A stretch of 64,000 bases of DNA from the IMG/VR virus record IMGVR_UViG_3300010149_000008; one strand, given 5' to 3'. Shown piece by piece: positions 24,580 through 41,699 of this stretch (the first letter of the stretch is position 1; each line of letters starts with the position of its first letter). Source of the DNA: a virus (Duplodnaviria; Caudoviricetes). A program made the position numbers and the translations under genes. Under the pieces are notes generated by a model, which was not told the origin of the DNA, did not search any database, and was given only the letters and a program-made list of their open reading frames with translations.

Positions 24580-26607
24580 ATGGCAGATGAATCAAATCTA
24601 TTTAAAAAACTGACGTCACTTTTTAGATCAGGCCCGGTAGTAAGAAGAAGAGTCAAACAATTTTCAGGAAAATCAACTTCAAAATCTTCTCTAGAGTTGT
24701 TTAAAAAAGCTCATAGTGATGTATATAATTCAACGTTAAGTGCTTATGGCTCTTATGATAGAATGGCAAGATATTCAGACTTTTCAGAAATGGAAGCTAC
24801 TCCAGAAATTAGTTCTGCATTAGACATATACGCAGAAGAGTGTGTATCGCAAGACGTTGAAGGTAATGTTTTGCACATATACTCAGAGAACAGAATGATA
24901 AAACAACTTTTAAACGAGCTTTTTTATGATGTTCTAAACATAGACTTTAATCTTGTAATGTGGGTAAGAAACCTATGCAAATACGGTGACTTTTTTCTTT
25001 TTAACGACATACACCCAGAGTACGGTGTAATCAATTGTTTTCCAATACCTATATCAGAGATAGAAAGAGAAGAAGGCTTTGATTCTGATGACCCAGCTGC
25101 TGTAAGATTTAGGTGGGTTACACAAGGTAATCGTATTTTAGAAAATTGGCAAGTATCACATATAAGACTCTTAGGTAGCGATGCATTTTTACCTTATGGT
25201 TCTTCAGTTTTGGAAGGTGCTAGACGTATATGGCGTCAATTAATTCTTATTGAAGATGCAATGCTTGTATATAGAGTAATTAGATCGCCTGAAAGACGAG
25301 TATTTTATATAGACGTTGGAAACATACCTCCTGAAAATGTAGCTGATTATCTAGAACAAGCGCAAACAGCGCTTAAAAGAAATGCTGTAATTGATAAAAA
25401 TACAGGACAAGTCGATTTAAGATATAATCCACTTTCAGTAGACGAAGACTATTTTCTACCTGTGAGAGGCGGAGAAAGTGGAACAAGAATTGATACGCTA
25501 GCAGGCGGTTCTAATACAACAGCAATTGAAGATGTAGAGTATATACAGAAAAAGCTTTTTGCAGCTTTAAAGATTCCTAAAGCTTACCTAGGGTATGATG
25601 AAGATATTGGTGCTAAAGCTACTTTAGCTCAAGAAGATATAAGGTTTAGTAGAACAATACAACGAATACAAAAAACAATCATCGCAGAATTAAACAAAGT
25701 TGCTATGATTCATTTGTATACGCACGGATACACAGAAGAAGATCTGTTAGACTTTGAGCTTAAATTAAGTAATCCATCAAGCATAGCACAACAACAAAAA
25801 CTTGAATTAATTAGAACTAAATTTGAAATAGCATCTCAGTCACCTGAAGGTATTGTAGATAGAGAGTGGATAAGAAAGCACATTTTAGATCTTAATGACG
25901 ATGAAATTAGAAGAATTGAAACAGGTAAAGAAAGAGATAAACTTCGTGATATGGAGTTAGAACAAGTCAGGCTGCCAACAGATAATCAATTTCTATTTGG
26001 AGACGAAAACGAAGATGGCGGAGATGGTTCGGGCGGAAGTGACGATATGAGTTTTGGATCTGATATGGGCGGAGGAGATGAAGGCGGAGGAGATGAAGGC
26101 GGTGGTGGTGGTTTAGAAGGATTATTTGCAGGTGAAATGAAAAGTGGCAAATTAATGTCAGAAGATGAGTTATCTGAGTATGATGATTTACTTGACGAAG
26201 ACGATGAAGTATCAGAAGAAAACAAACAAAACATAGGTAAAGGCGCAAACGTTAGCAATAGAGCAAAAGGCAAAAAAAGAGGAAAGTATAATATTAATAC
26301 TGACTTAAGTCTAGGAAAACTAGGTGCTGCTCAATCAGGAATAGAAAAAACATCTACCCATCAAGGTGCTCTAACAGGACCTGCTGTTATAAAAGCTAGT
26401 GATTTAATGGACGGAATATTACCACAGAGTCCTATTATTGAAAAGTTTGTTGACAAGCAACTTGGGTATAGAATGTCAAAGTCTCTTGAAGATATGTCAA
26501 AAGCACTAAGCATGGGTTCAAGCAGTAATAAAGTATTAACTGAGTCTAATAGTAGCAATGACGACATACTTATAGATAATGATATATTTGATAATGAGGA
26601 CCAGTAA
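24580..26607 (+). CDS. gp20: Portal protein (T4 gp20-like) with acidic/Gly-rich C-terminal extension
   Basis: PEISSALDIYAEE, EDAMLVYRVIRSPERRVFYIDVGNIP, EDYFLPVRG, ALKIPK. Confidence 0.93.
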   Translation: MADESNLFKKLTSLFRSGPVVRRRVKQFSGKSTSKSSLELFKKAHSDVYNSTLSAYGSYDRMARYSDFSEMEATPEISSALDIYAEECVSQDVEGNVLHIYSENRMIKQLLNELFYDVLNIDFNLVMWVRNLCKYGDFFLFNDIHPEYGVINCFPIPISEIEREEGFDSDDPAAVRFRWVTQGNRILENWQVSHIRLLGSDAFLPYGSSVLEGARRIWRQLILIEDAMLVYRVIRSPERRVFYIDVGNIPPENVADYLEQAQTALKRNAVIDKNTGQVDLRYNPLSVDEDYFLPVRGGESGTRIDTLAGGSNTTAIEDVEYIQKKLFAALKIPKAYLGYDEDIGAKATLAQEDIRFSRTIQRIQKTIIAELNKVAMIHLYTHGYTEEDLLDFELKLSNPSSIAQQQKLELIRTKFEIASQSPEGIVDREWIRKHILDLNDDEIRRIETGKERDKLRDMELEQVRLPTDNQFLFGDENEDGGDGSGGSDDMSFGSDMGGGDEGGGDEGGGGGLEGLFAGEMKSGKLMSEDELSEYDDLLDEDDEVSEENKQNIGKGANVSNRAKGKKRGKYNINTDLSLGKLGAAQSGIEKTSTHQGALTGPAVIKASDLMDGILPQSPIIEKFVDKQLGYRMSKSLEDMSKALSMGSSSNKVLTESNSSNDDILIDNDIFDNEDQ

Positions 26608-27443
26608 TGCCAAAAACTCATAATAAAAAAAGAAACATTGGAATTATTTACGAGCAGATTATACAACATGTATGTAAAAAAGCAATGGAAAATAACGAAG
26701 TTGATGCAGAACAAGGAATTGGCATCATTAAAGAGTGTTTTAGAAAAGGAACGCAGCTTAATAAAGAATACAAATTGTTTAAAGCATTAGCTGAAACTAA
26801 TGGAGTTTCTGGACACTTGGCAAATTCTATTATATTTGAAGCAAAAAAAGCATGTAATCAAATGTTTGATAGCGAAAAGCTTGAAAAAGAAAAAAGTAGT
26901 TTAATTAAAAAATTAAATTATAACTTTGGTAAAGGTGTTATTTTTGAAGAAAATATTGAAAACTACAAGCTTTATGCAACAATTCAAACTTTGCTAAATG
27001 AATGGCGTGATCCAAAAAATGCTTCTTTTGATTTAACAACAAAGTATGAAATAAAGCTTCATGAGAGCTTAACAGCTGATAATATAAAAGACGTTAAGCC
27101 TAAAAATTCAATTAAAGCAGATAGGCTAACTTTCAAGCTTATGAATGAAATATTTGACAAAAAGTATAAATCAATTTTAAATGAAAGTCAAAACAAACTT
27201 CTATATTATTTTTCTTCAAACAAAGAAGAAGACTTAGATAATGCATGTAATTCTTTAAAAAATGATACGCAGTGTCTTCTTGAAGAATATATGGAATCAT
27301 GCAATAACAAAATACTTTTAGAAAAATATAGATCAATAAATAGCCAAATAAATGAACTATCAACTGAACAAATTGATAAAAAAAGTTTGCAAAAATATTT
27401 GTTGCTAGCAAAGCTTAGAGAAGAACTACTAGGAGAAGAATAA
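26607..27443 (+). CDS. Hypothetical head-assembly-region protein
   Basis: Between portal and protease, coupled on both sides by TAATG overlaps. Confidence 0.65.
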   Translation: MPKTHNKKRNIGIIYEQIIQHVCKKAMENNEVDAEQGIGIIKECFRKGTQLNKEYKLFKALAETNGVSGHLANSIIFEAKKACNQMFDSEKLEKEKSSLIKKLNYNFGKGVIFEENIENYKLYATIQTLLNEWRDPKNASFDLTTKYEIKLHESLTADNIKDVKPKNSIKADRLTFKLMNEIFDKKYKSILNESQNKLLYYFSSNKEEDLDNACNSLKNDTQCLLEEYMESCNNKILLEKYRSINSQINELSTEQIDKKSLQKYLLLAKLREELLGEE

Positions 27444-28045
27444 TGCTGACCCCAAAATTAATTACAGAATGGTCAGCCTTTGAATATGACCATAAACTTA
27501 TAAAAGAGCAAAAAGCTGCAGGTAGGCCTTTGATGATGAAAGGTATACTTCAAAAAGCTGAAACGCTTAATCAAAATGGTAGAGTTTATCCAAAGGCTAT
27601 ACTTGAGAGAGAAATTAGAAACTATCAAAAATTTATAAAAGAAAATAGAGCACTTGGAGAATTAGATCATCCAGACTCATCAGTTGTGGAGCTTAAAAAC
27701 GCTTCTCATAACGTAAAAGAAGCTTACATGGAAGGCAATATTGTTTATGGTGTTGTAGAGATTTTAAATACGCCAAGCGGTCAAATCCTTCAGTCATTAG
27801 TTGAAAGCGGAGTAACGTTAGGAATTTCATCTAGAGGTGTTGGTAGTACAAAGTCACAAGGTGATATGCAAATTGTGCAAGATGACTTTCAGCTTATATG
27901 CTGGGATTTTGTAAGTGAGCCTTCAACACCAGGTGCATTTATGATGAGAGAAGCAAAAGAAGTTTCTCCACAATTTATAAACAATGTTTTTAACAAGACA
28001 GACAGAATAGATAGAATATTCAATGACATAATGGAGTGGAAATAA
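27443..28045 (+). CDS. gp21: Prohead core protease (T4 gp21-like)
   Basis: GILQKAETLNQNGRVYP, GELDHP, GISSRGVGS, DFVSEPSTPGA. Confidence 0.92.
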   Translation: MLTPKLITEWSAFEYDHKLIKEQKAAGRPLMMKGILQKAETLNQNGRVYPKAILEREIRNYQKFIKENRALGELDHPDSSVVELKNASHNVKEAYMEGNIVYGVVEILNTPSGQILQSLVESGVTLGISSRGVGSTKSQGDMQIVQDDFQLICWDFVSEPSTPGAFMMREAKEVSPQFINNVFNKTDRIDRIFNDIMEWK

Positions 28046-28476
28046 TGGCAATATCACATATACCAAGATCTGTAGGACATAACTTTGCTCCAGAATACCA
28101 AATTAGTGCTGTTCCTTATATGAGATCTTTAACAGTTGGTAATACTTTAGTTGATGAAGAAAATGACATAAGATCATTTTCATTTCCAAAAATAACTCAG
28201 TGGCTAAGTTTTAAAACATTGGCAGGGGTGACTGTAACAGTTTATTTCTGTAAAGAAGATGCTGTAAGCCTATCAAACGGTTTGGTAGTTGCAGCTGAAA
28301 CGACACTTCCTTTACATTTAAGATGTACTAAGCTATATTTTAATAATCGAGCAGTTGATGCAGATCCAAACCCAGGAGACGCAGGTCTAGCTATTCAAGT
28401 AAGAGCTGGTTTAACAACAATTGATGCATCTGAGTTTAACAATGTAGTAGAAACATTTTTAGAGGCTAATAACTAA
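28045..28476 (+). CDS. Hypothetical virion protein (start at TAATG overlap 28045)
   Basis: MAISHIPRSVGHNFAPEYQISAVPY; beta-rich; head operon context. Confidence 0.6.
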   Translation: MAISHIPRSVGHNFAPEYQISAVPYMRSLTVGNTLVDEENDIRSFSFPKITQWLSFKTLAGVTVTVYFCKEDAVSLSNGLVVAAETTLPLHLRCTKLYFNNRAVDADPNPGDAGLAIQVRAGLTTIDASEFNNVVETFLEANN

Positions 28477-28919
28477 TGGCAAAAGTAAGTAAAAGTTTAT
28501 TAAAAGAGATTGTTAAAGAGTGCTTAGTTGAGATTCTTGCTGAGGGCTTAACAGGTGGTGACACCGAGGCTTTAACAGAAAGCGTGCAAAAAGTAAAGCC
28601 TGTTAGGCGTGCTAGCAGTAAAGATAGAATTATGAAAAATATTCTTCCTCCTAAGCAAAAAGTTGTTAATGAAGACTTTGAAAAAAATATGAAAAGTGTT
28701 ATTTCAAATACAACAAAAGATCCTGTAATGGCAGCACTTTTAGCAGACACTGCTCAAACAACATTACAAGAGCAAAATACTGCTGATAGTGGAAATAGAT
28801 TTGCAGCGCGTCCAACAGACAGTGCTAGCAGAGCGGTGGCAGAAAGTGACCCTTCAGAATTGTTTGGAGGAGCAGCTGCAAATTGGGCACAGTTAGCTTT
28901 TTCTGATAGTATGAAGTAA
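28476..28919 (+). CDS. Hypothetical protein with N-terminal LKEIVKE...LAE leader
   Basis: MAKVSKSLLKEIVKECLVEILAEG. Confidence 0.65.
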   Translation: MAKVSKSLLKEIVKECLVEILAEGLTGGDTEALTESVQKVKPVRRASSKDRIMKNILPPKQKVVNEDFEKNMKSVISNTTKDPVMAALLADTAQTTLQEQNTADSGNRFAARPTDSASRAVAESDPSELFGGAAANWAQLAFSDSMK

Positions 28920-28956
28920 ATTATTAATTAAGACTATAAGTTTAACTGACAAGCAT

Positions 28957-28965
28957 ATATTTATA
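28957..28965 (+). promoter_or_regulatory. Putative late-promoter motif (ATATTTATA)
   Basis: 39 nt upstream of ATG 28996; overlaps a T4-type TATAAATA at 28962-28969. Confidence 0.45.
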
Positions 28966-28995
28966 AATACAATATAAAATATATGGAGTTATATT

Positions 28996-29274
28996 ATGGC
29001 TAGAAGAAAGAAGCTGACACCACGCGTATTGCGTAGAATTATTGCTGAAGAAAGCGCAAAATTAAATGAGACTTTAGAGATGGGACTCAAACACCCATCA
29101 GAGGCTCCTAAGCGCACAAAGGAAGTTGATGCTCACAAGTATGCAGACTCATTAGAGTCATGTATGGATTATTATAAAATGTGTTGCATTAAAGAAGAAA
29201 AAGTTTTAAAGCATCTTAGAGTAATTCAAGAGGCAAAGAGACGTCTTAAAAAGAAGATGATTCGCAAACTTTAA
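28996..29274 (+). CDS. Small basic protein with LRRIIAEE...LNE leader
   Basis: MARRKKLTPRVLRRIIAEESAKLNE; GGAG RBS. Confidence 0.65.
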   Translation: MARRKKLTPRVLRRIIAEESAKLNETLEMGLKHPSEAPKRTKEVDAHKYADSLESCMDYYKMCCIKEEKVLKHLRVIQEAKRRLKKKMIRKL

Positions 29275-29318
29275 TTTGTCATATTTAAATAATGAAAGTT
29301 TATCAATAGGAGTATCTC

Positions 29319-29990
29319 ATGGCTAAAGGTGCAAACGGAACAATAGATCTAGCAAGCTTTGAACAATTAAGAGTTCAAAGACTTTCAACTAGTGCAAGAA
29401 ACTTAGAACATTCTGGTGGAAAATCTTTTGGCATTGCAACCGATAGACTTGACAGTATATTTACGTCAAGCCCACTTTTATCTTCAAATAGAGTAGCAGA
29501 TATAGAAGGTTCTAGAGATCCTGACAAAATTCAAGTTTTAGACGGCGACATTTATAAAATGTATGCTAATGTTGTTGACGGTGATAATAGCATAAATGGA
29601 TTTGGCTTTGAAGGAACTGATACAGTTAATTTAAATTATAAACACCCACAAAATCCTTTTTATATTCAAAGTTCTAACAGCGTTGATTTTTCTTTATTAA
29701 CTACAGGTGCTATGCAAACAGATTCAGAAGGAAATATTGCGCATTACGCGGGATCACCAGATTTAATACCTAATAATCTAGATAGCCCAGAAACTGAAAT
29801 TGGAAATACAACGCCTATATTTGAAACATCTGATGGCACTAATATACCGCATAGAAGAGAAAATTTATTTGGTTCTACAGATGCAAGTTATGCTAGCATT
29901 GTTGATAACGAGCAAGGGCTAGGATTTAGTGGTAATCCTGATACTATAGATACTATAGGCAAATATTTTAATAAAAAGTTTAACAACTAA
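29319..29990 (+). CDS. Hypothetical head-region protein
   Basis: AGGAG RBS; weak similarity by eye to 30003. Confidence 0.65.
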   Translation: MAKGANGTIDLASFEQLRVQRLSTSARNLEHSGGKSFGIATDRLDSIFTSSPLLSSNRVADIEGSRDPDKIQVLDGDIYKMYANVVDGDNSINGFGFEGTDTVNLNYKHPQNPFYIQSSNSVDFSLLTTGAMQTDSEGNIAHYAGSPDLIPNNLDSPETEIGNTTPIFETSDGTNIPHRRENLFGSTDASYASIVDNEQGLGFSGNPDTIDTIGKYFNKKFNN

Positions 29991-30002
29991 AGGAAAATTC
30001 TC

Positions 30003-30767
30003 ATGGCAATAAACATTCCTATTAGACAAACATCAAAAAAATATGGTTTTATTACAGATAATGCTAGGGTTCATGGCAATTCAAGCCTTGAGAATGAGTC
30101 ATATGGCGCAGCAAATTTTGGTGAAAAAGGTTTAGGTAATCATACTAGTCTAAAATCTATTTTTAATCATCCTAATAGTATAATAAACGGAGGAAATGGC
30201 AGCGAAGACAAAGACATGATTATAGCACCTGCTTTTTTACAAGGAAGAAATGACCTTTCCGGAAAATCATTAGGAGATGAAATTGCAGCTGCATTAGAGA
30301 TTATAGAAAGAAAAATAAGCGAAAGAGAAACAACATTAGCTGCTCAAACTCCACCTGGCGACAGAGATGCAGATACTGTATTACAAAAACTTTTGCAAGA
30401 CGAGTCGACGCTTAGTGGAATTATTAACAACGAAACAAGCGACCCTGCAGCACTATCAGCTTTGCTAGTTTCTTCTGAATTTGAATACAATCCAGACTTT
30501 CCATTAAGCAATGTAAATTTTGGTTATGGCGCAATAACTACTGAAACTTCTCGTGCTAAAGACTTACACAGTAGAACAACTGCTGCACCTCGTTCACCTA
30601 ATGTAAACTTTCCTTCTTTAAATTCATCACTCAATAACAATGAAGCCACGGCTAACGCTAATACAGACATACAAGGTCTAGACGGTCAAGGTGGTTTTGG
30701 ATCCTCTACATCATCAAACTTTAGCACTTCAACTATCATTACAGCAATTATAAATAGATATATTTAA
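30003..30767 (+). CDS. Hypothetical head-region protein
   Basis: AAGGA RBS; possible paralogue of 29319. Confidence 0.65.
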   Translation: MAINIPIRQTSKKYGFITDNARVHGNSSLENESYGAANFGEKGLGNHTSLKSIFNHPNSIINGGNGSEDKDMIIAPAFLQGRNDLSGKSLGDEIAAALEIIERKISERETTLAAQTPPGDRDADTVLQKLLQDESTLSGIINNETSDPAALSALLVSSEFEYNPDFPLSNVNFGYGAITTETSRAKDLHSRTTAAPRSPNVNFPSLNSSLNNNEATANANTDIQGLDGQGGFGSSTSSNFSTSTIITAIINRYI

Positions 30768-30779
30768 TAAAGGTATGTT

Positions 30780-31589
30780 ATGCCGGGTTTAACAACAAAT
30801 CCTAATTTAGGTAGAGGTCAAGGATACTACACGCGTAATGATCTCGGTTATGGAAAGACCGACAGTGGCAGTGGAGTTGGAGGTGGTCTAGGATCACCTT
30901 GGGCAGTTTCAGGCAATGCTGGAATATATAAAGAAAAGTCTGAGTACGAAAAAGAGTTAGACAAAGATAGATTTGAGCAAGACAAAGAAGATGACTGTGA
31001 TATAGAGGAGTTTGAATTAGATGTTAAACTTAAACAAAAATCTTTTACATCTAATAGTAAAGACGTATCAGACTTCGGAGTAAAATCCGGAACTGATCCT
31101 TATTCTTTTAACGGTCTTGCTAACACATCTCAGTATCTAGGTGCTGGTTATGATAGAGGAGAAAGTGTCCTTAAAGAATTCATAAGAGAAGCTTTGCAAG
31201 AAGAGATGTTAAGAGAAATAACTTCGATGTCTGTTAGAGTTATGGTTAAAGGAACAGTTGGTGACACTTACAAGAAAAGTAAAGCAAACGTATCAAATAC
31301 AAATCAAATGTCTCCAGGCGATCCATCTATAAAGCAAAGAGGGTATGATAACAATAATAGAAAAGCAAGAACACCTGATAAATGGCCATATTCTATACCT
31401 GACGAGCCAACAGCTTCAGGAACTAAAAGAATGAATTTCCTAGACGATGACATATCTGATGAGTTTGATTGGGAAAATGATAGTTATACAACTGGAAAAT
31501 ATTTGTATGATACTACTAAGCAAGAATACGTTGACGAAAAAAATCTTAAAAATCATATTAAAAAAACGAAATTTAATTTAAATAGATAA
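30780..31589 (+). CDS. Hypothetical protein, Gly-rich N-terminus, internal LKEFIRE motif
   Basis: ...VLKEFIREALQEEMLRE... Confidence 0.6.
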   Translation: MPGLTTNPNLGRGQGYYTRNDLGYGKTDSGSGVGGGLGSPWAVSGNAGIYKEKSEYEKELDKDRFEQDKEDDCDIEEFELDVKLKQKSFTSNSKDVSDFGVKSGTDPYSFNGLANTSQYLGAGYDRGESVLKEFIREALQEEMLREITSMSVRVMVKGTVGDTYKKSKANVSNTNQMSPGDPSIKQRGYDNNNRKARTPDKWPYSIPDEPTASGTKRMNFLDDDISDEFDWENDSYTTGKYLYDTTKQEYVDEKNLKNHIKKTKFNLNR

Positions 31590-31634
31590 TTTCGTCATAT
31601 TTATTGATATATATTAATAGAAAAATTATTAAAT

Positions 31635-33389
31635 GTGAGTAATATAATGGCGAACAATTTATATGAAGAAGCAATTAATGCTGCTGAACAAATTAAAGCA
31701 GCTGCTGAGAATAAAGTTAAGCAACAGTTAGTTGAAGCAATGTCTCCAAAAATTAAAGATCTTATTGAAAGGTCTTTGATGGGCGAAGAAATTGACGAGA
31801 TGAGCGATGCTGCACCTATTCAAGCATCTGATGAAAATCAAGATGTTGTTGACAAAAGGGTTGTCGACGACAAAAAAGAAGACAGCAAAAAAGAAGACAG
31901 CAAAAAAGAAAAAGTTGATGGTGAAGAAGAAGTAAAAGAAAGTGACGGCACAGAAGAGTGTGGTACTATGGAAGATGACAAAAGTGAATCTTATAAATCT
32001 TCCAGTGTTAACGAAGTAGAAATTTCAGCATCATCAGCGAAAATATTAAACAGGATGATTTCTAAAAAGAGAATGAAAGAAGCTGCTTCAAATAAATTAA
32101 GTAAAATTAGTGAAAGTACTAGGTCGCTAAAAAAAGCTATTTTAATTGCTGAAAGCTCAAATAAAAGTAAAAAATTTAGTAAAAAATTCGTACAAGCGTA
32201 TAAGACTTTGTTGAATGAGCTTAAAAATATTGGCAATAGCGATATAATTAAATCAGATAAAACATTATTAAGAGAATATTTAAAAATATCTAAGGAGTTA
32301 AAGAATATGTCTACAAGACGCAGATCGAGAAAAAACTATCTTAACGAAAGTCTAGAAGACCTTCTAGAAATGAACATCTTCGAGGATGAAGATGAAGATG
32401 AAGAATTAGATGATGAAAAAAGCGAAGTCGAAGCCGAAGACGACGACGAAGATGCTGATCTTGAATTAGATCTAGACGACGAAGGCGAAGACGACGACGA
32501 AGGTGGAGAAGAATTAGATCTAGACGATGACGTAGACGATGACGATTATAGCTCTCTCATGTCAGAGCCTCTAGAAGACATACTTAAGTCAGCACTTAAA
32601 GGTATGGGAGAAGGCGATGATGATCTAGACTTAGAAGTTGCTGAAGAAGGTGTTGACGAAGTCTATGAAATGGACGAGCTAGACGAAATGGACGAGCTAG
32701 ACGAAATGGAAGAAGGACCCGGATGTGATGAAGATGATCAACAAGAAATGCATGCTGAGTCTAGACGCCGCGGAAAAGATCTCTTTTTAGAGATCGATGA
32801 AAATATGCTTAAAAAAGAAATTACTAAAATGAGAAGACTTCGTGAAGGCGAAGCATCAGACATGGCATCACACTTTGGTGGTGGCAGTTTGGACAAGGAA
32901 ATGTTCGTTGATGTAGACGACGGTGATCTTAATGTACATGCAGGTGTTTTAGGCCGCGAGGATGTACCGATGCCAAAGGTTGAAGCAGCACTCCGAAAGA
33001 CAGTACGCACAAATCGTATGTTAGAGAGCAAGATTCGACAATATAAAAATGCGGTTCGTGGAATGAAGACGCAATTAACTGAGATGAACCTGTTTAACGC
33101 TAAGCTTCTATACGCTAACAAATTGATGCAAAATAGAGATCTCTCTATGAAACAACAGCGTCACATTGTTGAGTCACTAGATGAAGCAGGTACTTTAAAC
33201 GAGGCGAAACTCTTGTTCGAGAGTCTCTCTAAGTCTTTGAGTAAACCTTCCAGAAGAAGCGGCAAAAATCTTTCAGAGGGTGCTAACAGAAGAACTCTTT
33301 CTTCAGCATCACGTTCTACAAAGAGTGCTCAAACACTCAAAGAGAACGTTGCTCTAGATCGATGGGCAACTTTAGCTGGAATTAAGTAA
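31635..33389 (+). CDS. Prohead scaffold/core protein (T4 gp22-like); start probably ATG 31647
   Basis: Immediately upstream of MCP; MANNLYEEAI start, long acidic tract, C-terminal coiled coil NLFNAKLLYANKL...LDRWATLAGI. Confidence 0.75.
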   Translation: MSNIMANNLYEEAINAAEQIKAAAENKVKQQLVEAMSPKIKDLIERSLMGEEIDEMSDAAPIQASDENQDVVDKRVVDDKKEDSKKEDSKKEKVDGEEEVKESDGTEECGTMEDDKSESYKSSSVNEVEISASSAKILNRMISKKRMKEAASNKLSKISESTRSLKKAILIAESSNKSKKFSKKFVQAYKTLLNELKNIGNSDIIKSDKTLLREYLKISKELKNMSTRRRSRKNYLNESLEDLLEMNIFEDEDEDEELDDEKSEVEAEDDDEDADLELDLDDEGEDDDEGGEELDLDDDVDDDDYSSLMSEPLEDILKSALKGMGEGDDDLDLEVAEEGVDEVYEMDELDEMDELDEMEEGPGCDEDDQQEMHAESRRRGKDLFLEIDENMLKKEITKMRRLREGEASDMASHFGGGSLDKEMFVDVDDGDLNVHAGVLGREDVPMPKVEAALRKTVRTNRMLESKIRQYKNAVRGMKTQLTEMNLFNAKLLYANKLMQNRDLSMKQQRHIVESLDEAGTLNEAKLLFESLSKSLSKPSRRSGKNLSEGANRRTLSSASRSTKSAQTLKENVALDRWATLAGIK

Positions 33390-33439: not shown

Positions 33440-35455
33440 ATGAGTTTTACACTTAAAACATTAACAGAAGGTATTAGAGACCGCCACGTAGGCCAGCAAA
33501 ATAAGCGCCTCGTTGAGAAATGGTCTCGCACTGGGCTCCTTAGAGGCATGGACGACGTAAACCGTGAGAACATGGCAACAATGCTTGAGAACCAGGCAGC
33601 ACAAGTTCTTCGCGAGAGCAACACAATGAGCAGCGGTGAGGTTGGTGGTTTCACTAACATCGCATTCCCAATCGTTCGTCGTGTTTTCGGTGGTCTTATT
33701 GCTAACGAGCTAGTTTCAATCCAACCAATGAGTTTACCATCAGGTCTTCTCTTCTACCTTGATTATACATACGGTGGTGATAGCGGTGGATATGGAAAAG
33801 GTGAGTCAATCTACGGTGGCCCAGCAGGCAAGGCAATCCAAAGTGGTGCTCTTGCTTCTGGCGGTCAATATGATCTAGTAGGTAGCGGCTTTTCTAGAAA
33901 ACCAAAAAGACTTTTAGTTTGTGACGGTGGTAATGAAGCACGTGCTGCTAATGCTGTGTTGGCTGATGATCGTGATGAGGTTGTTGCAAATATTAATGAT
34001 TTAGCAACTTTATTAGTTGACCAAAACCCAGCTTTTGTTGGTGCTCCTGCTGACGGTTCAAATGCTTTTGCAGCGTTTGGTACAAATAGTCAAGTAATTA
34101 AAATTGATCAAGCTGAGCATTTAAAGCTAATCCAGTTTGACTCACAGCTAGTTGATAGAATTACTGCTGTAGCTGATGGTGGTTTAGGCGAAAGATACGC
34201 ATTTATGGCACTTCTTTTAAGTGGTATGAGTAGCGTAGATAAGGCAATGGCAAAAGATATCGTTCTTCTTGGAGCATTTGACGACGGTGACGGTACAGAA
34301 GCACTCTCAGCAGTTCTTCCAGATGCAGTTCAAGCAGGACCTGCGCACAACGTGAGAAGACTCAATCAATTAGGAACTTTTGCAGGTGGAGTATTTACAC
34401 CTGATTCAATTGGCGGGACACACGTACTTATGGTTGTTCACTTAGGTGATAAAGATAGTACTGCGCATATATCAGGACAAATTGCTGGAAATAATGCGGC
34501 TGATAACTCTGTTGACGCGCTTACTCTTACTTTCGTGAGAGAGGACACAGTTGATCACCTTGATTCTGCAGGTGCAGCAACATTTGGTTCTGTAACTGGC
34601 GCTCCTGCATTTGAAGGTGACGGATCAGGTGGCACAGCAGATGCTTCTGATGGCACTGCGAATCTTGATATTCCAGAGATTGATATCAAGATTGAGTCAA
34701 TTCCTGTAACTGCTCAAACACGTAAGTTAAGAGCTCGTTGGAGCCCAGAGCTTGCGCAAGACCTCAACGCGTACCACTCAATGGACGCAGAGGTTGAGCT
34801 TACTCAGATCCTTTCAGAGCAAATTGCACTTGAGATTGACCGTGAGATCCTTGGTGATCTTCTTACTGGTGCTCAAGGCGCTAACTTCTTCTGGAGCCGT
34901 TCTCCAGGTAAGTTTGTTAACAAGCGTACTGGTAGTGAGATTGCTCGTACTTCAACTCTTAACCCTGGACCAGCTTTCACTGGTACAGTTCGTGAGTGGT
35001 ATGAGACTTTGACCGAGACAGTTATTGACGTAGCTAATGAGATTCACCGTAAGACTCTACGTGGTTCTGCTAACTTCATCGTGGTTTCACCTGACGTTGC
35101 AACAATCCTTGAGGCTTCAGTTCTTTATCGTCCTTCATATAGCATTGATGGTGACGGCCAAGTTGGTGCTCCTTTCACAATGGGTGCTGAGAAGGTTGGT
35201 ACACTTTCAAATCGTTTCACAGTTTATAAAGATCCTTACTTCCCACGCAACAAGATCCTTGTTGGTTATAAGGGTGGTTCTTATCTCGAGACTGGTTTCG
35301 TTTATGCTCCATATGTACCACTCATCGTTACACCGACTATCTTCCAGCCTGACGATTTCACCCCGAGAAAGGGTGTTATGACTCGTTACGGTAAGAAGAT
35401 GGTACGTGCGGACTTCTATGGTACAGTAACATGCCTCGATATGAACATTATCTAA
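33440..35455 (+). CDS. gp23: Major capsid protein (T4 gp23-like) with large central insertion
   Basis: PIVRRVF, VSIQPMSLPSGLLFYLD, TRKLRARWSPELAQDLNAYH, LEIDREI, YAPYVPL, GVMTRYG; strong codon bias. Confidence 0.95.
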   Translation: MSFTLKTLTEGIRDRHVGQQNKRLVEKWSRTGLLRGMDDVNRENMATMLENQAAQVLRESNTMSSGEVGGFTNIAFPIVRRVFGGLIANELVSIQPMSLPSGLLFYLDYTYGGDSGGYGKGESIYGGPAGKAIQSGALASGGQYDLVGSGFSRKPKRLLVCDGGNEARAANAVLADDRDEVVANINDLATLLVDQNPAFVGAPADGSNAFAAFGTNSQVIKIDQAEHLKLIQFDSQLVDRITAVADGGLGERYAFMALLLSGMSSVDKAMAKDIVLLGAFDDGDGTEALSAVLPDAVQAGPAHNVRRLNQLGTFAGGVFTPDSIGGTHVLMVVHLGDKDSTAHISGQIAGNNAADNSVDALTLTFVREDTVDHLDSAGAATFGSVTGAPAFEGDGSGGTADASDGTANLDIPEIDIKIESIPVTAQTRKLRARWSPELAQDLNAYHSMDAEVELTQILSEQIALEIDREILGDLLTGAQGANFFWSRSPGKFVNKRTGSEIARTSTLNPGPAFTGTVREWYETLTETVIDVANEIHRKTLRGSANFIVVSPDVATILEASVLYRPSYSIDGDGQVGAPFTMGAEKVGTLSNRFTVYKDPYFPRNKILVGYKGGSYLETGFVYAPYVPLIVTPTIFQPDDFTPRKGVMTRYGKKMVRADFYGTVTCLDMNII

Positions 35456-35615: not shown

Positions 35616-36782
35616 ATGTTTAAAAAAAGAGATACAAAAATATTATTAGAAAACTGGAGAAGGTTTTTAAATGGTGAAGTATTTGAAGATAAAAAAGTTA
35701 ACGAAATTTATCAAACTGTTTATGCAGGAGGCGGGGGATACGTAACAACTCAGACAGATATACCTAGAAACGATTATTTGATTTATGACGATTATTCTAT
35801 GATATTAGGAAGAGGCATGAACGAAAGTGCTGGAGGAGAAATTCAGATGCAAGCACTTACAAAAAAATTCGTAAAAGAAAATGGAAGCCCTGAACTTGAC
35901 ATTGTTGACTTTTTTTATGAAGTTATTGAATCTTCTTTTGGCAGGTCTAGTGGTGAGCAAAGAAAAAAAGAATTAGAGCTTATTAAGCAAAGAGCTGAAT
36001 TTTATAAAACTGTTTTTTCTCCTTCTATGTACACAGACGAAAAAACTATTATCTTTTTACCTTTGGCACATTTCGGTGACAGGGATTCAACGACTGAGTC
36101 ACAAAGACCTTACATAAAAAAAGACACATCGGGTAAACACGTAGACTTTGACATTTCAAATGAAGAACTTTCAGGAAAAAAAGATTTTAAACAAATAGAA
36201 ATGGATAATGTTAGTGATAATTTTGGTAAAGAAAGTGTACATGAATATTTAACGCTTAAAGATAATATTAACTGGTCAATGCATGATCTAGGACATGCTA
36301 TGATTGAGAGTGTATTTGATAACGATTCTATTATAGACTTTGAAGAGCATCACCCACAAGAAAAAGACAGTCATGAAGCATTTGACTTTATTTTCAAAGA
36401 CTTATCAGCAAGAGGAAAAAGAGAAATAGATTCACTAGAGAACGATGTTAAAAGAAGTGATGCTTTGCATATAAAAGAACTTTTAAATGCATTAACTCCA
36501 GGTGTTGGAGAAGGTGACTTAGAATTTTCTTTGTTTGCAAAACTTATAAAAAACCCTACAGACAAAGGCGTTCAAGAATTAGTTGATTTAATAACTAAGA
36601 ACATAAGAAACAATTTAAATCAGATACACCCTAAAATTATTAAAAGATTTAATATAGATAGCGAAATTTCTTCTGGACTTTCTACTTTAAAGAAATTTTT
36701 AGAAAAAGTATTACATGTTCATAAAGAAGTAGGAAATAGAGTTCATGATGTTTTTAAAATAATTTATGTACCTAAGAATTAA
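35616..36782 (+). CDS. Hypothetical protein with LLENWRRFL leader and HDLGH motif
   Basis: MFKKRDTKILLENWRRFLNGE; NWSMHDLGHAMIE. Confidence 0.65.
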   Translation: MFKKRDTKILLENWRRFLNGEVFEDKKVNEIYQTVYAGGGGYVTTQTDIPRNDYLIYDDYSMILGRGMNESAGGEIQMQALTKKFVKENGSPELDIVDFFYEVIESSFGRSSGEQRKKELELIKQRAEFYKTVFSPSMYTDEKTIIFLPLAHFGDRDSTTESQRPYIKKDTSGKHVDFDISNEELSGKKDFKQIEMDNVSDNFGKESVHEYLTLKDNINWSMHDLGHAMIESVFDNDSIIDFEEHHPQEKDSHEAFDFIFKDLSARGKREIDSLENDVKRSDALHIKELLNALTPGVGEGDLEFSLFAKLIKNPTDKGVQELVDLITKNIRNNLNQIHPKIIKRFNIDSEISSGLSTLKKFLEKVLHVHKEVGNRVHDVFKIIYVPKN

Positions 36783-36840: not shown

Positions 36841-37218
36841 ATGTTAAGCAACAGAAAAAATACTAGTGTAGTTGTTTCATCTTGGAGAGACTATTTAAGC
36901 GGAAAGCCTGCTAGAAAAAATTTAAACGAAGCAGTTCACAATGCAGACGGAGATAGAGAAGAATGTTTTAAAGCACTAATTTCAGACTTATTAGATCGTG
37001 GTTGGGATGATGATAGAGTTGATGTACTAGTTATTGATGTATTGAAAAAATGTAATATTTCTGATGAAGAGCTAGAGATGATTGCTTACGAACGACCTAG
37101 CAGTCATGAGCTTAACAACGACAAAGATATGGCAGAATATAATGATGATGATTACGACCCAGAGTATAATCCATTAGGCACAGAAGAAGATTCACTTTAT
37201 AATCCAGGCGATCGATAA
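36841..37218 (+). CDS. Small acidic hypothetical protein with WRDYL...LNE leader
   Basis: AAGGA RBS; leader resembles that of 35616. Confidence 0.6.
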   Translation: MLSNRKNTSVVVSSWRDYLSGKPARKNLNEAVHNADGDREECFKALISDLLDRGWDDDRVDVLVIDVLKKCNISDEELEMIAYERPSSHELNNDKDMAEYNDDDYDPEYNPLGTEEDSLYNPGDR

Positions 37219-37252: not shown

Positions 37253-37618
37253 ATGAAGAAACCAAAATTCTATGAAAACAGCAGCGTACCTAAGATTTTA
37301 AGTAAGTTTGCGCCTATTGAAATATGGGCAATTACTTTAGGCCCTTGGGTTTTTTGTCGTGGCGAGTTAGCTGAAAAAACAAAGAGGCATGAAACAATTC
37401 ATTATTTACAGTATAAAGAGCTTTGGTTTATTGGTTTTCTATTAATATACATATTTGATTATCTATGGGCTGCAGTTTTAAGCAGAAAAGGGTTTTCTCG
37501 TGCGTCTTACCTTTCCATAAGGTTTGAGCAAGAAGCGTGGAACTGCGATGAATTTGAGGACTACTTAGAAAATAGAGAACCTTATGCATGGAAAAATTAT
37601 CCGTTAGGTGGTGAATAA
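37253..37618 (+). CDS. Small HExxH-motif (zincin-like) protein
   Basis: RHETIHYLQ...FEQEA with a hydrophobic helix between. Confidence 0.6.
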   Translation: MKKPKFYENSSVPKILSKFAPIEIWAITLGPWVFCRGELAEKTKRHETIHYLQYKELWFIGFLLIYIFDYLWAAVLSRKGFSRASYLSIRFEQEAWNCDEFEDYLENREPYAWKNYPLGGE

Positions 37619-38145
37619 TGCCTTTTATGAGACAATATAACAGTCAAAAAAAAGTTTCTAAAAGAATTAATACTAGTCCTTCTAAAAGTGATATCGATAC
37701 TGCTAAAAAGCTAGGAATTGATTTGGGTAAAAGCTGGAATGCGTATTCTAAAGAAGTAAGAGTTCACATTTACATAAAAAATATGGATGAAATGGTTAGG
37801 TTTTACAACAAAATACTAGAATTTCCTGTCGTAAGATATTGGAGGTATTCTGATGGTGATGGCACGCAAATAGACTTAGGTGGCAACGTTATAGAATTAT
37901 TTTCTAAAAGCAGTAGAAACTATTCAAATAAAAACTTTCATGGAAACGTTTCACTTTCAGTAAAAGTAAAAGATGTAAACAAGTTATATGAAAAATTTAG
38001 CAAGAAAAATATAAAGCTAGGTGAGTTAATAGAAAATCCTTGGGGTGATGCATCTTTTCACGTTGTTGATCCTGAAGGCAATCGTTTAGCTTTTTTTAGT
38101 CCGACGATTAAAAAAGAAAAATATTACAAAGTTAAAAAAAGCTAA
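37618..38145 (+). CDS. VOC/glyoxalase-bleomycin-resistance family protein
   Basis: VRFYNKILEF...VKVKDVNKLYEK...PWGDASFHVVDPEGNRLAF. Confidence 0.8.
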   Translation: MPFMRQYNSQKKVSKRINTSPSKSDIDTAKKLGIDLGKSWNAYSKEVRVHIYIKNMDEMVRFYNKILEFPVVRYWRYSDGDGTQIDLGGNVIELFSKSSRNYSNKNFHGNVSLSVKVKDVNKLYEKFSKKNIKLGELIENPWGDASFHVVDPEGNRLAFFSPTIKKEKYYKVKKS

Positions 38146-38293
38146 TATAATTATTTAGTCAGTCCTATCTATGCGTTTTATACATTATGTGAAGAACAAG
38201 GGTGTCAGCGTATAAAAAGTGTAGTAATGCCAATTGACTTGCTGGATTTTCATCCTTTCTTCAGCGAGAAGGAAACGTAGGAGGGCAATTTTT

Positions 38294-38548
38294 ATGAAGT
38301 GGTATATGTACGTTATTCTCTGTTTTGACAATTCTTTTTATTGCGGTATTACCACAAATCTTGAAAAAAGATTAAAACAGCACAACGGTGCGATCAAAGG
38401 CGGGGCAAAATACACAAGAAGCCGGCGTCCTTGCAGATATATATACAAAGAAGATGCTCAAAATAGAAGTGATGCATCAAAAAAAGAAGCAACTTTTAAA
38501 AAATTAAATAGAAAACAAAAAGAAAAGTATATTAACTTTATTTCCTGA
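38294..38548 (+). CDS. Stand-alone GIY-YIG nuclease (YhbQ/UPF0213-like)
   Basis: MKWYMYVILCFDNSFYCGITTNLEKRLKQHN...GAKYTR...E; AGGAGG RBS supports ATG 38294. Confidence 0.85.
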   Translation: MKWYMYVILCFDNSFYCGITTNLEKRLKQHNGAIKGGAKYTRSRRPCRYIYKEDAQNRSDASKKEATFKKLNRKQKEKYINFIS

Positions 38549-39644
38549 ACTCTGGACTAATATAGTCAACGCCCAGAGCAGAAAAAACTTGCTTTTCATT
38601 TTTAGGCATTAAAAACTTTTGCTTATTCTTGTCATAAAGATAATCAAAAGAATAAATAACATCTCTTTTAAAACCTTCATATAACATCTTTACATTGTGC
38701 GCAGCGCTACCAGTCCAGTAACATCTTCTTGTTGGAATAGAAGTCGGACTACACATAAAGACGTCACATTGCATTCCTTCTTTTACAAACTGAACTATGT
38801 TCTTAAAAGATCTTGTTCTACTTTCAGAAACTATATTTCTTTTTAATGTGTTACCGAATAAAAAGCTATAATTCTCCATAAATCTTTTTTCATCCAGAGG
38901 ATGTCTATTTATTCTGCCGGCATCTTTATGACCTACAATATTAACAATTAGATCTAAGTCGCCTACAATGCTTTTCTTTCTACGAAGAGAGCCAGCATTG
39001 TATATATTTTCAACAATAAAGCCATTTTCTTCTAAAATATTGGTAACTTCTTCTTTAACAATGCCGAATACGTTTTTAGCATATTCGTAATCTTTTTTTT
39101 CGCAGCCTAGAGATGCACCTTCATTTAAGAGACTATTGCGATTATTTAGCTTAGATTCTTTAATTACATGATGAGATCCGTCCCAAAAGCCTTCTAATGC
39201 TTTAAAGTCACAAAGATGAATTGCTTCGTGAATAATGCTTTCTTTTAAAAACCTTATATGACTTTGTAAGTTAAATTTTGTCCAGTCAATTTTTAGCTGA
39301 CCGTTGTCTTCATATAAATGATTTGGTTTATAAACATATCCATTAACAACACGATCACAAATACTCTCACCAATTGTTTTCATCTTATTAATTGCTTTAA
39401 CATCAGAATACTTAAAAAGTTCTAAATCAATACTCTCAGCTAACAGTGAATCAAAGCTATATAGAAAATAGTCATAGTCTTTTACTTGATGAGATCTGTT
39501 TTCCATTAAAGCTTTATGATAGTTGACAATTGAAGCGCTATAATCAAAAACATATCTGTCTTTTTCAACATGATACATTACGTTTTCTAATGCCAACTCT
39601 TCTATGCCTTTTACTAACATTTTATGCTGTTGTTTAGTTAGCAT
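38538..39644 (-). CDS. polX: DNA polymerase X family catalytic domain with about 175-aa N-terminal extension
   Basis: AGSLRR, GDLD, CDVF, YWTGS, EKQVFSALGVDYISPEFR. Confidence 0.8.
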   Translation of the reverse strand: MLTKQQHKMLVKGIEELALENVMYHVEKDRYVFDYSASIVNYHKALMENRSHQVKDYDYFLYSFDSLLAESIDLELFKYSDVKAINKMKTIGESICDRVVNGYVYKPNHLYEDNGQLKIDWTKFNLQSHIRFLKESIIHEAIHLCDFKALEGFWDGSHHVIKESKLNNRNSLLNEGASLGCEKKDYEYAKNVFGIVKEEVTNILEENGFIVENIYNAGSLRRKKSIVGDLDLIVNIVGHKDAGRINRHPLDEKRFMENYSFLFGNTLKRNIVSESRTRSFKNIVQFVKEGMQCDVFMCSPTSIPTRRCYWTGSAAHNVKMLYEGFKRDVIYSFDYLYDKNKQKFLMPKNEKQVFSALGVDYISPEFRK

Positions 39645-39654
39645 TTTAAGCTCC

Positions 39655-40443
39655 TTATAAAAGAACCTTGTTCATAGCTCTTTTAGACTCTTTAATAAAC
39701 CCATTGTTAAATTCCATAAAATATTCTTCAATAGAATAAATCTTTTTAGAGTCACGACCTTTTACACCAATTTCGCCTAACAACTCAGCATCAATGTCTT
39801 GTTGACTTAATAAGTCATAGTCCATTAAAATCTTTGTGACTTCTTTAGCTCTTTGCTGTCCGTTTTTTCTAGCTGACTTTTGAAAAGCTAGGTTTAAATC
39901 ACCTAATAAATTGCCACTATTACTTTTATCACCTTGAGCAGTAAAAATATTTCCACTCGGCACGTGCTCAATATCACCTTCAGTACCTCTAGTTACTTGT
40001 GAGTCAACAATTAAGAAAAAATCTTCTTTTGGCATGCCTCCGCCTTGCATGTTTGCATCTACAGCGTCGCCTACATCTTGTTGACCTGGGCTGTATGTTC
40101 CATGCCATATATTACCATTAGGATCAACCCATCCTACACCTTGAACATATGAACCACCAGGAGCAGCTAAGCCTTGTTGATTTCTATTGCTGTTGTAAGA
40201 TGATTGTGAAGATGAAGGGTCTTCAAATCCCATTTGTCTTCTCTCTTGTCTTTGTCCTGCCTGTCTATATAGCTCTTCGTCTGCAGCAGAGTGTCCAGGG
40301 AAAGAAGGACCTCGCGATGATCTTCCTCCTCTTACACCACCTCTAGCGTCACCTGCCATTCCATATCTGGTGTCACCCGGAGTAGAAACTTCTTCTATTG
40401 TTTCTCTTATAAGTCTTCGAAGATTTTTAATGCTAATTTTCAT
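39655..40443 (-). CDS. Hypothetical Gly/Arg/Gln-rich protein with LRRLIRETIEE leader
   Basis: MKISIKNLRRLIRETIEE; RGG-type low-complexity segment. Confidence 0.65.
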   Translation of the reverse strand: MKISIKNLRRLIRETIEEVSTPGDTRYGMAGDARGGVRGGRSSRGPSFPGHSAADEELYRQAGQRQERRQMGFEDPSSSQSSYNSNRNQQGLAAPGGSYVQGVGWVDPNGNIWHGTYSPGQQDVGDAVDANMQGGGMPKEDFFLIVDSQVTRGTEGDIEHVPSGNIFTAQGDKSNSGNLLGDLNLAFQKSARKNGQQRAKEVTKILMDYDLLSQQDIDAELLGEIGVKGRDSKKIYSIEEYFMEFNNGFIKESKRAMNKVLL

Positions 40444-40447
40444 TTAA

Positions 40448-41236
40448 CTAGTCCTTTTCTAGATTATCTTTTATTAAATATTCTCTAATTATGTCTTTTT
40501 TTGGTAGCACTACACATTTATTTGATTTTTCTTTTAAATAAATTCTTTTATTTTTTAGCGGATCTAAACTGTTTACAAACACTGGGTTTGATGTATATAG
40601 AATTTGTGCAGGTCTAAATATGCATTTGTCAACTCCTTCACAATGCTTTTCAAACCAAGGTTTAAGTGTTTCACCATCATACGCTTCGCTTAACATAAAC
40701 CAAAGATGTGCCTTAATTTTATTACTATTAAAAAACATGCCATTTGAAAACTGGCAAACGTAACTTGAATTGTGGAATGATTCATGAAGCGTTTTTACAA
40801 ACATTTCAACAGCTAGTTCTCTATGACTTTTTATCTGTAAGTTGCAATTTAGAGGTTTTTTAAAGTCATCAATGTCTAGCATAATCCATTTTTTTGGATG
40901 ATCAACTATTGTAGGCTTATGACAAATACCTTCTTCAATTTTCTCTTTAATTAGTCTTCTAATCTTATAACCTCGTGTCTTTAAGTTATAAGCATTTTCT
41001 GTTATTTTACCTCTAACAAAACAACAATTTCTTTTCCAAGCGTATTTTTCTACAAGCGAATTTAAGTCGTATATGTCTAAAATTGCTACTTCGTTAAAGC
41101 TATAGTACTTAGAAAAATTTTTATCTATAAGCTCATATTCTTGATTTTGATTTAAATACCAAGACTTGTGTTGTTGTGTATTACATTCTAGAATAGTAAC
41201 TAGATTATTGTTCTTTTTTTTCATTAATTTTGCCAT
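40448..41236 (-). CDS. Putative primase-polymerase (AEP superfamily) domain protein
   Basis: IMLDIDD (DxD), QFSNG...KAHLWFML (His), DKCIFRPAQILYTSNPVF. Confidence 0.55.
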   Translation of the reverse strand: MAKLMKKKNNNLVTILECNTQQHKSWYLNQNQEYELIDKNFSKYYSFNEVAILDIYDLNSLVEKYAWKRNCCFVRGKITENAYNLKTRGYKIRRLIKEKIEEGICHKPTIVDHPKKWIMLDIDDFKKPLNCNLQIKSHRELAVEMFVKTLHESFHNSSYVCQFSNGMFFNSNKIKAHLWFMLSEAYDGETLKPWFEKHCEGVDKCIFRPAQILYTSNPVFVNSLDPLKNKRIYLKEKSNKCVVLPKKDIIREYLIKDNLEKD

Positions 41237-41282: not shown

Positions 41283-41699
41283 TTACTCTTCTGAACTTTC
41301 TTCACCAGCTTGAGGCTCAACATTATCATCACAATCTTCTGGACATTCTTCTCCTTCACAAGGCTCACAAGCAGGATCTACAGCCGGCTGGGGCTCGTCA
41401 CATCCGTCTTCACCCTGAAACTCAGGCTCACAATCTAATTGGTCTTCACCACCAGATACATCTTGATCACTATTTGTTTCGCCTGCTTCTGAGCCTGCTT
41501 CTGCACCTGCTTCTGCACCTGCTTCTGCACCTGCTTCTGCACCTGCTTCTGCACCTGCTTCTGCACCTGCTTCTGCACCTGCTTCTGACATTCCCATGTC
41601 TGTTTCTTGTGCTTCTTTTTCATCATGATCGTCTTTTTCACAACCACTTACCAATAAAGATAAAGCTAACATTAAAAATAACAATGAGTTCTTGAACAT
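41283..41699 (-). CDS. Acidic lipoprotein with (A/S)EAG repeats
   Basis: Signal peptide ending in lipobox LVSG-C; AGGAG RBS; Cys/Glu-rich C-terminus. Confidence 0.7.
   Translation of the reverse strand: MFKNSLLFLMLALSLLVSGCEKDDHDEKEAQETDMGMSEAGAEAGAEAGAEAGAEAGAEAGAEAGAEAGSEAGETNSDQDVSGGEDQLDCEPEFQGEDGCDEPQPAVDPACEPCEGEECPEDCDDNVEPQAGEESSEE
41482..41589 (-). repeat. 12-nt tandem repeat x9 encoding (A/S)EAG
   Basis: Plus-strand unit CCTGCTTCTGCA, 7 identical copies plus 2 variant flanks. Confidence 0.95.

Follow-up and report, generated by a model that had tools for sequence, protein, structure and literature searches.

A 64,000-nucleotide stretch of the IMG/VR virus record IMGVR_UViG_3300010149_000008 (the window), itself part of a 133-kb record that is a fragment rated ∼53% complete, carries the gene for a DNA polymerase of family X (PolX) built of two modules. 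The C-terminal module is near-certainly an intact minimal PolX core, consisting of palm and thumb only, in which the residue equivalent to Arg283 of pol beta has been replaced. The N-terminal module is, with near certainty, a domain specific to this family and distinct from the 8-kDa lyase and fingers domains. The two are joined by a linker that ends in an invariant candidate site for the prohead protease. In the explanation preferred here, the N-terminal module would be a pro-domain that is cut off, and the core would be released in the capsid and injected into the host for repair; taken as a whole, this proposal is given a little short of an even chance. The parts of the gene on which the argument draws are as follows.

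38538..39644, minus strand: whole PolX open reading frame (ORF), 368 amino acids (aa) plus stop, two-module phage PolX (P0001), assigned by ORF reading, Pfam, PDB sequence search and homologues.
39195..39644, minus strand: N-terminal domain (N-domain), residues 1-150, helical with one beta-hairpin (110-119), confidently modeled and present only in this family.
39120..39194, minus strand: linker, residues 151-175, with conserved motifs and a variable spacer; residues 152-177 have a predicted local distance difference test score (pLDDT) <50.
39117..39128, minus strand: candidate prohead-protease site L173-N174-E175/G176, [LI]-x-E-[G/S] in 25/25 family members.
38541..39119, minus strand: PolX core, residues 176-368, palm and thumb only, equivalent to pol beta 143-334; basic, with a mean isoelectric point of 8.8.
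38952..38960, minus strand: catalytic D229-L-D231 in G-S-L-R-R...G-D-L-D, family-invariant.
38763..38765, minus strand: third catalytic aspartate D294 (M-Q-C-D-x-F), family-invariant.
38682..38720, minus strand: helix-N segment Y309-W-T-G-S...N317...K319-M-L321, from alignments to Thermus PolX, bacterial PolX and terminal transferase (TdT).
38838..38897, minus strand: palm helix, residues 250-269, predicted contact surface for an archaeo-eukaryotic primase (AEP)-like protein, from a complex model.

Identification of the core relies on sequence profiles and on a structural model. The Pfam thumb model DNA_pol_B_thumb (PF14791) matches residues 308-367 with 40.3 bits against a cut-off of 25 (44 bits in the genome search), the Pfam palm model matches residues 194-241 weakly, at 15.6 bits and below the cut-off of 25, and no Pfam match is present in the first 190 residues of PolX. 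Sequence searches of the PDB match Thermus PolX, TdT and pol mu, and weakly the PolX of African swine fever virus (ASFV), always within residues 210-367. The AlphaFold model of the 368-aa protein, built on 23 homologues (pLDDT 85.5, predicted template modeling score (pTM) 0.80), falls into three parts: a confident N-domain (1-150), a stretch of pLDDT <50 (152-177) and a confident core from residue ∼178. Residues 175-368 of the model superpose on pol beta 143-334 over 171 residues, with a Z score of 18.3 and a root-mean-square deviation (rmsd) of 2.6 Å, and the fold match covers only model residues 175/182-368. The ORF reported in the preliminary description is real and encodes 368 aa, and the confinement of PolX signatures to the C-terminal part holds for both Pfam and the pol beta fold match.

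The residues that define a working active site are retained. D229, D231 and D294, together with G218-S-L-R-R222, which forms the triphosphate-binding motif of PolX (G-S-x-R-R), are invariant in 25 sequences and align with ASFV PolX and Thermus PolX. Y309, equivalent to the Tyr gate residue Tyr271 of pol beta, and N317, equivalent to Asn279, are also kept. The YWTGS at 309-313 reads as earlier claimed: W310 occupies the Phe272 position and aligns with the Trp of TdT, although it is not universal in the wider family, the two most distant members having Phe or Met there.

The position of Arg283 in pol beta lies twelve residues after the Tyr in residue numbering. Its equivalent here is L321, and Leu or Met occupies it in 25/25 family members. 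When HMMER aligns the protein without gaps to Thermus PolX, L321 stands opposite an Arg; in a BLAST alignment read in ungapped register it pairs with the +12 Arg of a bacterial PolX, and in the TdT alignment it lies opposite one of two adjacent Arg. K319 retains a basic residue two positions before it. The by-eye assignment of Leu to this position in the preliminary description was therefore correct, and Arg283 is not conserved in proper alignments. Mutants of R283 in pol beta provide the basis for expecting lower fidelity; by analogy, the phage PolX, which lacks this template-checking Arg and has Leu or Met in its place, probably copies with reduced fidelity. The core would fill short gaps without the help of 8-kDa and fingers domains.

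The minimal core is best compared with ASFV DNA polymerase X (O174L, 174 aa; PDB 1jaj, 5hrb), which likewise consists of palm and thumb only and is similar in size to residues 176-368 of the phage protein. ASFV PolX residues 30-171 align to residues 210-365, with an extrapolated start near residue 181, and its G-S-L-R-R...D-x-D is nearly letter-identical; overall sequence similarity is weak (E ∼0.1-0.5). Both enzymes are virus-encoded, the phage enzyme by a tailed phage with a bacterium as host. Unlike ASFV PolX, the phage protein has an extra 175-aa N-terminal module and a longer palm helix (∼249-270) that is the predicted AEP contact. As encoded, it is not a palm-and-thumb-only polypeptide of the ASFV type (∼174 aa) and would become one only once cut as proposed. 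With the same minimal architecture, ASFV PolX is active, and it is error-prone (PMC8619059); its expression is late, and the virion contains it along with other repair enzymes (PMC12172490). Packaging in the phage would need a capsid-protease/propeptide route, which ASFV PolX is not known to use.

The same palm/thumb fold is found in pol beta, pol lambda, TdT and bacterial PolX of Thermus and Bacillus (Z 17-18, rmsd ∼2.5 Å). The phage enzyme shares with the pol beta-type enzymes the three catalytic Asp and the Tyr271 and Asn279 equivalents, and with TdT the Trp at the Phe272 position. In contrast with pol beta-type and bacterial PolX, it has, by Pfam, hhalign and fold comparison, no 8-kDa lyase domain, no fingers/HhH domain and no PHP domain, and its Arg283 position is Leu/Met.

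The N-domain is unrelated to any detectable PolX accessory domain. The possibility, raised in the preliminary description, that the N-terminal region folds as a standard 8-kDa lyase/fingers domain was checked by fold, profile and pol beta alignments, and no such fold was seen. When the protein is aligned directly to chains of pol beta and pol lambda, 163-181 residues are covered, nearly all within residues 169-368; the Pfam models HHH_8, HHH_5 and lambda-fingers give no match at E<=1; and hhalign assigns a probability of 0.1% to a match between the N-domain profile and the N-terminus of a bacterial PolX. Folded alone, the domain again forms helices and one hairpin, and its 10-residue block means span pLDDT 65-96, mostly confident. 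Its best fold match among 48,161 chains is to generic helical proteins (VIA-align Z 5.8). Foldseek on the PDB (E >=0.8) and the ESM atlas (template modeling score <=0.41) likewise returned generic helical matches only, an absence of fold match that does not prove a new fold.

The distribution of the N-domain coincides with that of the polymerase. Run against 1.84 billion representative proteins, its profile gives 6 hits, all in this PolX family, and it detects no paralogue among all ORFs of the 133-kb record. The family comprises 27 full-length homologues (42-85% identity, 361-369 aa) and two more distant members of 357 aa. Every member has the 175-residue N-terminal extension; no core-only forms were found, only fragments on tiny contigs. 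In a tblastn search of 50,697 phage records for cultured relatives, just three weak core-only matches were obtained. The N-domain, with a mean identity of 60%, evolves faster than the core. Residues of the N-terminal region that are invariant even in the most distant members (R30, P107, W121, F124, E135, D155 and E175) do not form a catalytic signature. The mean charge is −0.9 (near-neutral) for the N-domain and +5.8 (basic) for the core.

Three candidate roles for the N-domain were considered and set aside. It is unlikely to be a basic DNA-binding substitute for the 8-kDa domain, with a net charge of ∼−1; a metal-binding triad of H43, H109 and H129 is not kept in P0032 and P0033; and a role as AEP-docking module is at odds with the complex model, which puts the interface on the palm helix of the core.

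The linker carries the motifs G-F-W-D-G-S and V-I-K-E163, followed by a spacer that varies by <=8 residues and then by L-L-x-E175. T4 gp21 cleaves after L/I-X-E (PMC9026906), and all 25 sequences present [LI]-x-E-[G/S] at the end of this low-confidence, length-variable segment. The other motifs listed in the preliminary description, LLAE70, LYE112, LKE135 and IKE163, are all present along with LLNE175, and a cut after E175 leaves 193 aa.

Residues 1-175 contain nine [LI]xE sites versus 2.5 expected by shuffling (P<0.001), and control motifs ([LI]xK, [LI]xD, [VMF]xE, [AGS]xE and others) are not enriched in this half of the protein. When the ORFs of the record are ranked by composition-corrected L/I-x-E enrichment, PolX stands first of 96 (shuffle z 5.3). 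Of the nine ORFs that lie from the portal gene to the capsid gene, five to six, the protease among them, rank in the top ten. Ten of 11 control motifs fail to reproduce the ranking, and the overlapping [LI]..E reproduces it partly. Four sites of the N-half are conserved (E70, E135, E163 and E175). Further N-half sites across the family number 76 versus 35 expected, over 20 more alignment columns, a count that is indicative only as the sequences are related; from the sequences, this turnover of extra sites looks like selection for motif abundance. A stricter pattern, h-[LI]-x-E-[SGA] (6 versus 0.31 expected), was not used, being derived from the same sites and not flagging T4 substrates.

The same statistic was run on 119 kb of T4 as a positive control. 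There gp22 ranks first (z 5.6), gp21 second, gp68 fifth, Inh seventh and gp23 tenth, and non-substrates have a mean z of 0.26 (sd 0.95, maximum 3.1). The density of L/I-x-E in the phage PolX thus equals that of T4 gp22. Two other proteins encoded beside PolX were scored in this way and neither was counted: the AEP-like protein (z 3.7) is borderline, and a middle protein between the two (z 2.5) is within noise, as T4 non-substrates reach 3.1.

A protease suited to such sites is present in the window, which belongs to a marine phage, a distant T4-like myovirus with a T4-type large terminase, a gp20 portal, a gp23 capsid protein and the following gene.

27443..28045, plus strand: gp21-type prohead protease (Peptidase_S77), E 5e-29; it would be the enzyme for the proposed cutting.

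With a record of 133 kb at ∼53% completeness, this is probably a jumbo phage. Among capsid proteins, its own most closely resembles those of Flavobacterium phages and uncultured huge phages. Giant-phage head proteins of SPN3US, phiKZ and 201phi2-1 carry multi-site propeptides of 100-275 aa, one of them on a subunit of the virion RNA polymerase (PMC5694885). The candidate 175-aa multi-site propeptide of the phage PolX resembles these. By the same analogy, the fragmentation statistic fits a disposable N-terminal module, and the N-domain in its entirety would be required for any capsid targeting.

Several genes of the head module display related features. The major capsid protein (33440-35455, plus strand) has 671 aa, and the Gp23 Pfam model matches it in two stretches, indicating a large insertion. 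Its N-terminus contains T-L-T-E10-G and V-L-R-E59-S, the latter near the maturation position of T4 gp23. Two ORFs directly after the capsid gene (35616-36782 and 36841-37218, both plus strand) have similar amphipathic N-terminal motifs, I-L-L-E-N-W-R-R-F-L and S-S-W-R-D-Y-L; these starts may resemble the N-terminus of T4 gp23. Most ORFs in 26607-33389 (plus strand), from portal to capsid genes and with the protease included, show a strong L/I-x-E excess (z 2.3-3.7) and are, on this criterion, likely to be substrates belonging to the core or scaffold.

PolX is the last gene of a three-gene cassette, AEP-like protein/middle protein/PolX, whose synteny is kept down to 42% identity and whose strand is opposite to that of the flanking capsid and neck genes. 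The relatives of the cassette proteins derive from marine metagenomes. The two genes that precede PolX are as follows.

40448..41236, minus strand: first cassette gene, AEP/RepB-type primase-like, 262 aa, with a match to PHROG DNA primase (5e-13) and conserved DxD, His and Asp motifs.
39655..40443, minus strand: middle cassette gene, 262 aa, leader L-R-[RK]-L-I-[RK]-E, with its stop 10 nt before the PolX start.

A model of the complex between the AEP-like protein and PolX reaches an interaction prediction score from aligned errors (ipSAE) of 0.86, compared with 0.48 for the best of three controls; the ipSAE mark is reached by 58/80 solved complexes and 2/110 mismatched pairs, counts that are rough as own alignments were used. 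The runs share >=89% of contacts, with partner pLDDT >=77. The predicted interface lies between the PolX palm helix 250-269 (with 207-208 and 239-242) and AEP residues 9-12 and 48-64, and the N-domain is not involved. The model favors a two-polymerase complex, in which the PolX core probably works together with the AEP primase-polymerase-like protein, whose gene lies two genes upstream.

The middle protein opens with the leader L-R-R-L-I-R-E, followed by low-complexity sequence rich in Gly, Arg, Ser and Gln. The leader is retained in homologues of differing length (262, 213 and 152 aa), and a near-identical one, L-R-R-I-I-A-E, opens a small head-module ORF (28996-29274, plus strand). It is a candidate capsid-targeting leader, and the protein has, by analogy, the look of T4-type internal proteins.

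Beside the cassette lie a small GIY-YIG ORF (38234-38548, plus strand) and a gene of the glyoxalase/bleomycin-resistance family (37618-38145, plus strand), both of which related contigs conserve. The GIY-YIG ORF runs toward the PolX gene, and the two share 11 bases at the 3′ end of PolX; translation of the GIY-YIG product probably starts at an internal ATG near 38294. Scans bearing on promoter timing showed no systematic placement of TATAAATA upstream of head genes, and those for sigma-70-like promoters and terminators stayed at chance level. Upstream of the cassette, on the same strand, 41283-41699 encodes a protein of 138 aa in which a signal peptide and lipobox (L-V-S-G-C) are combined with nine tandem E-A-G-A units and a tail that is acidic and Cys-rich.

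Elsewhere in the window, a 1046-aa ORF (19149-22289, plus strand) has an N-terminal calcineurin-like phosphoesterase of Mre11/SbcD type and a C-terminal SbcC/Rad50 Walker B region, so that its product appears to be a fused nuclease-ATPase. No ligase or PolB was found in the same genome, an absence that is uninformative at ∼53% completeness.

In the proposed explanation, the N-terminal module would act as a pro-region that carries PolX into the prohead core. The gp21-type protease would then cleave it at the invariant [LI]-x-E175/G as well as at other L/I-x-E sites, so that a polymerase of 193 aa, about the size of the ASFV enzyme, would be set free within the capsid. Together with the DNA, this polymerase would pass into the host, where it would mend gaps ahead of replication, as ASFV does with its packaged PolX. 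In a bolder and less likely form, the N-domain would dock the pro-enzyme to the prohead core and be shredded, and the injected polymerase, possibly with the AEP-like protein bound, would close gaps or mend damage before phage gene expression begins. The steps differ in strength. That the N-terminal module is a prohead-protease substrate stands, on its sequence, at about even odds. That the freed core is retained in the capsid and injected is more doubtful, as this part is drawn from the analogy with the late, virion-packaged PolX of ASFV. The preliminary description had joined a cleavable pro-domain to a head-packaged, injected and possibly mutagenic polymerase. The pro-domain is favored, indirectly, by the gp21-type protease, the invariant linker site and the top L/I-x-E rank obtained with a statistic validated on T4, while head retention, injection and mutagenesis found no support. 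The leader of the middle gene, co-transcribed with PolX and upstream of it, also counts for processing, as it recurs on a head-module ORF.

A number of observations weigh against cleavage and delivery. The N-domain is well folded and conserved (60%), and a pTM of 0.80 is as compatible with an integral domain as with a disposable one. E175-G176 aligns near pol beta 143 and may, in the structural model, be a remnant of the fingers-palm junction. The core itself has five L/I-x-E sites (z ∼2.6), two of which (212 and 252) are conserved in 18/23 sequences, and the most distant family members carry just four sites in the N-half. Unlike T4 substrates, PolX is without a short conserved leader at its extreme N-terminus; the sole early site, I14-E-E16, is kept in 8/23. 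Cargo that survives in the T4 head (Alt and IPI-III) shows no enrichment, and the statistic therefore speaks for fragmentation of the N-terminal module and not for retention of the core. The setting of the cassette, opposite to the structural genes and beside the GIY-YIG and glyoxalase-family genes, suggests a repair island. T4 alt, hoc and inh likewise lie on the opposite strand, and because they are arranged alike, orientation is weak evidence against head association. The family is absent from cultured phages (the 50,697 records searched), the prior for a polymerase as protease substrate is low, and the support is statistical.

Much of this evidence is shared by the strongest alternative, which is a quite realistic one: an unprocessed two-domain repair polymerase of the cytoplasm, working in a module for DNA repair or damage tolerance with the AEP-like protein and perhaps the GIY-YIG nuclease, in which the N-domain is regulatory or serves oligomerization or partner binding and the motifs are structural or coincidental. 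The folded and conserved N-domain, the excess of sites in the core, the weaker excess in distant members, the opposite strand and the conserved repair-like neighbors (AEP, GIY-YIG and glyoxalase/bleomycin-resistance genes) all suit such an enzyme, as does the predicted binding of AEP by the core. In the literature searched, moreover, there is no report of a tailed-phage capsid that contains a DNA polymerase, nor any phage precedent for a DNA polymerase as cargo. What an unprocessed polymerase leaves unexplained is the first rank among 96 ORFs at the level of T4 gp22, the appearance of new sites at new positions, and the invariant [LI]xE-[GS] at the end of a variable, low-confidence linker. The N-domain also offers little for such a role, as it is not basic, has no lasting catalytic signature and is not the predicted AEP contact.

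A protein that is cut by the protease but not delivered as cargo is improbable. The protein, or its N-terminal module alone, would be a component of the prohead core or scaffold, or a protease decoy or regulator resembling T4 Inh, fragmented during head maturation, and no active polymerase would reach the next host. The T4 proteins singled out by the statistic are those broken up by gp21 or acting upon it (gp22, gp21, gp68 and Inh) and not surviving cargo, and the core, too, has conserved sites, at 212 and 252. The catalytic residues and the core are, however, more conserved than the N-domain, which would be pointless in a protein destined for destruction, and the conserved, predicted partnership with AEP points to enzymatic work. 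Least credible by far is the view that PolX is a relic without activity, or that its fold serves a purpose other than that of a polymerase, for instance as a nucleotidyltransferase on targets other than DNA 3′ ends, for which the sub-threshold Pfam palm match (15.6 against 25) and the missing Arg283 and DNA-binding 8-kDa and fingers domains could be cited, but against which stand the (near-)invariance of the three Asp, G-S-x-R-R, the Tyr gate and the Asn279 equivalent across 34-85% identity and the activity of ASFV PolX with the same minimal architecture (PMC8619059).

The phage PolX is a new architectural variant of family X, and the literature searched contains no account of this family or of a PolX-AEP pair in a phage. 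Minimal PolX has been studied almost only in ASFV, and the phage family is a distinct one with the same stripped-down core, in which the natural loss of the fidelity Arg and a predicted AEP partner provide a new system for the study of DNA handling by palm and thumb. The composition-corrected L/I-x-E score may serve as a cheap means to nominate prohead-protease substrates in uncultured T4-like phages. If the proposal of a cleaved, packaged polymerase is true, this would be the first DNA polymerase known to be carried as capsid cargo by a tailed phage, new in kind for phages and a parallel to the packaged repair kit of ASFV, and incoming phage genomes would be repaired or completed by injected enzymes.

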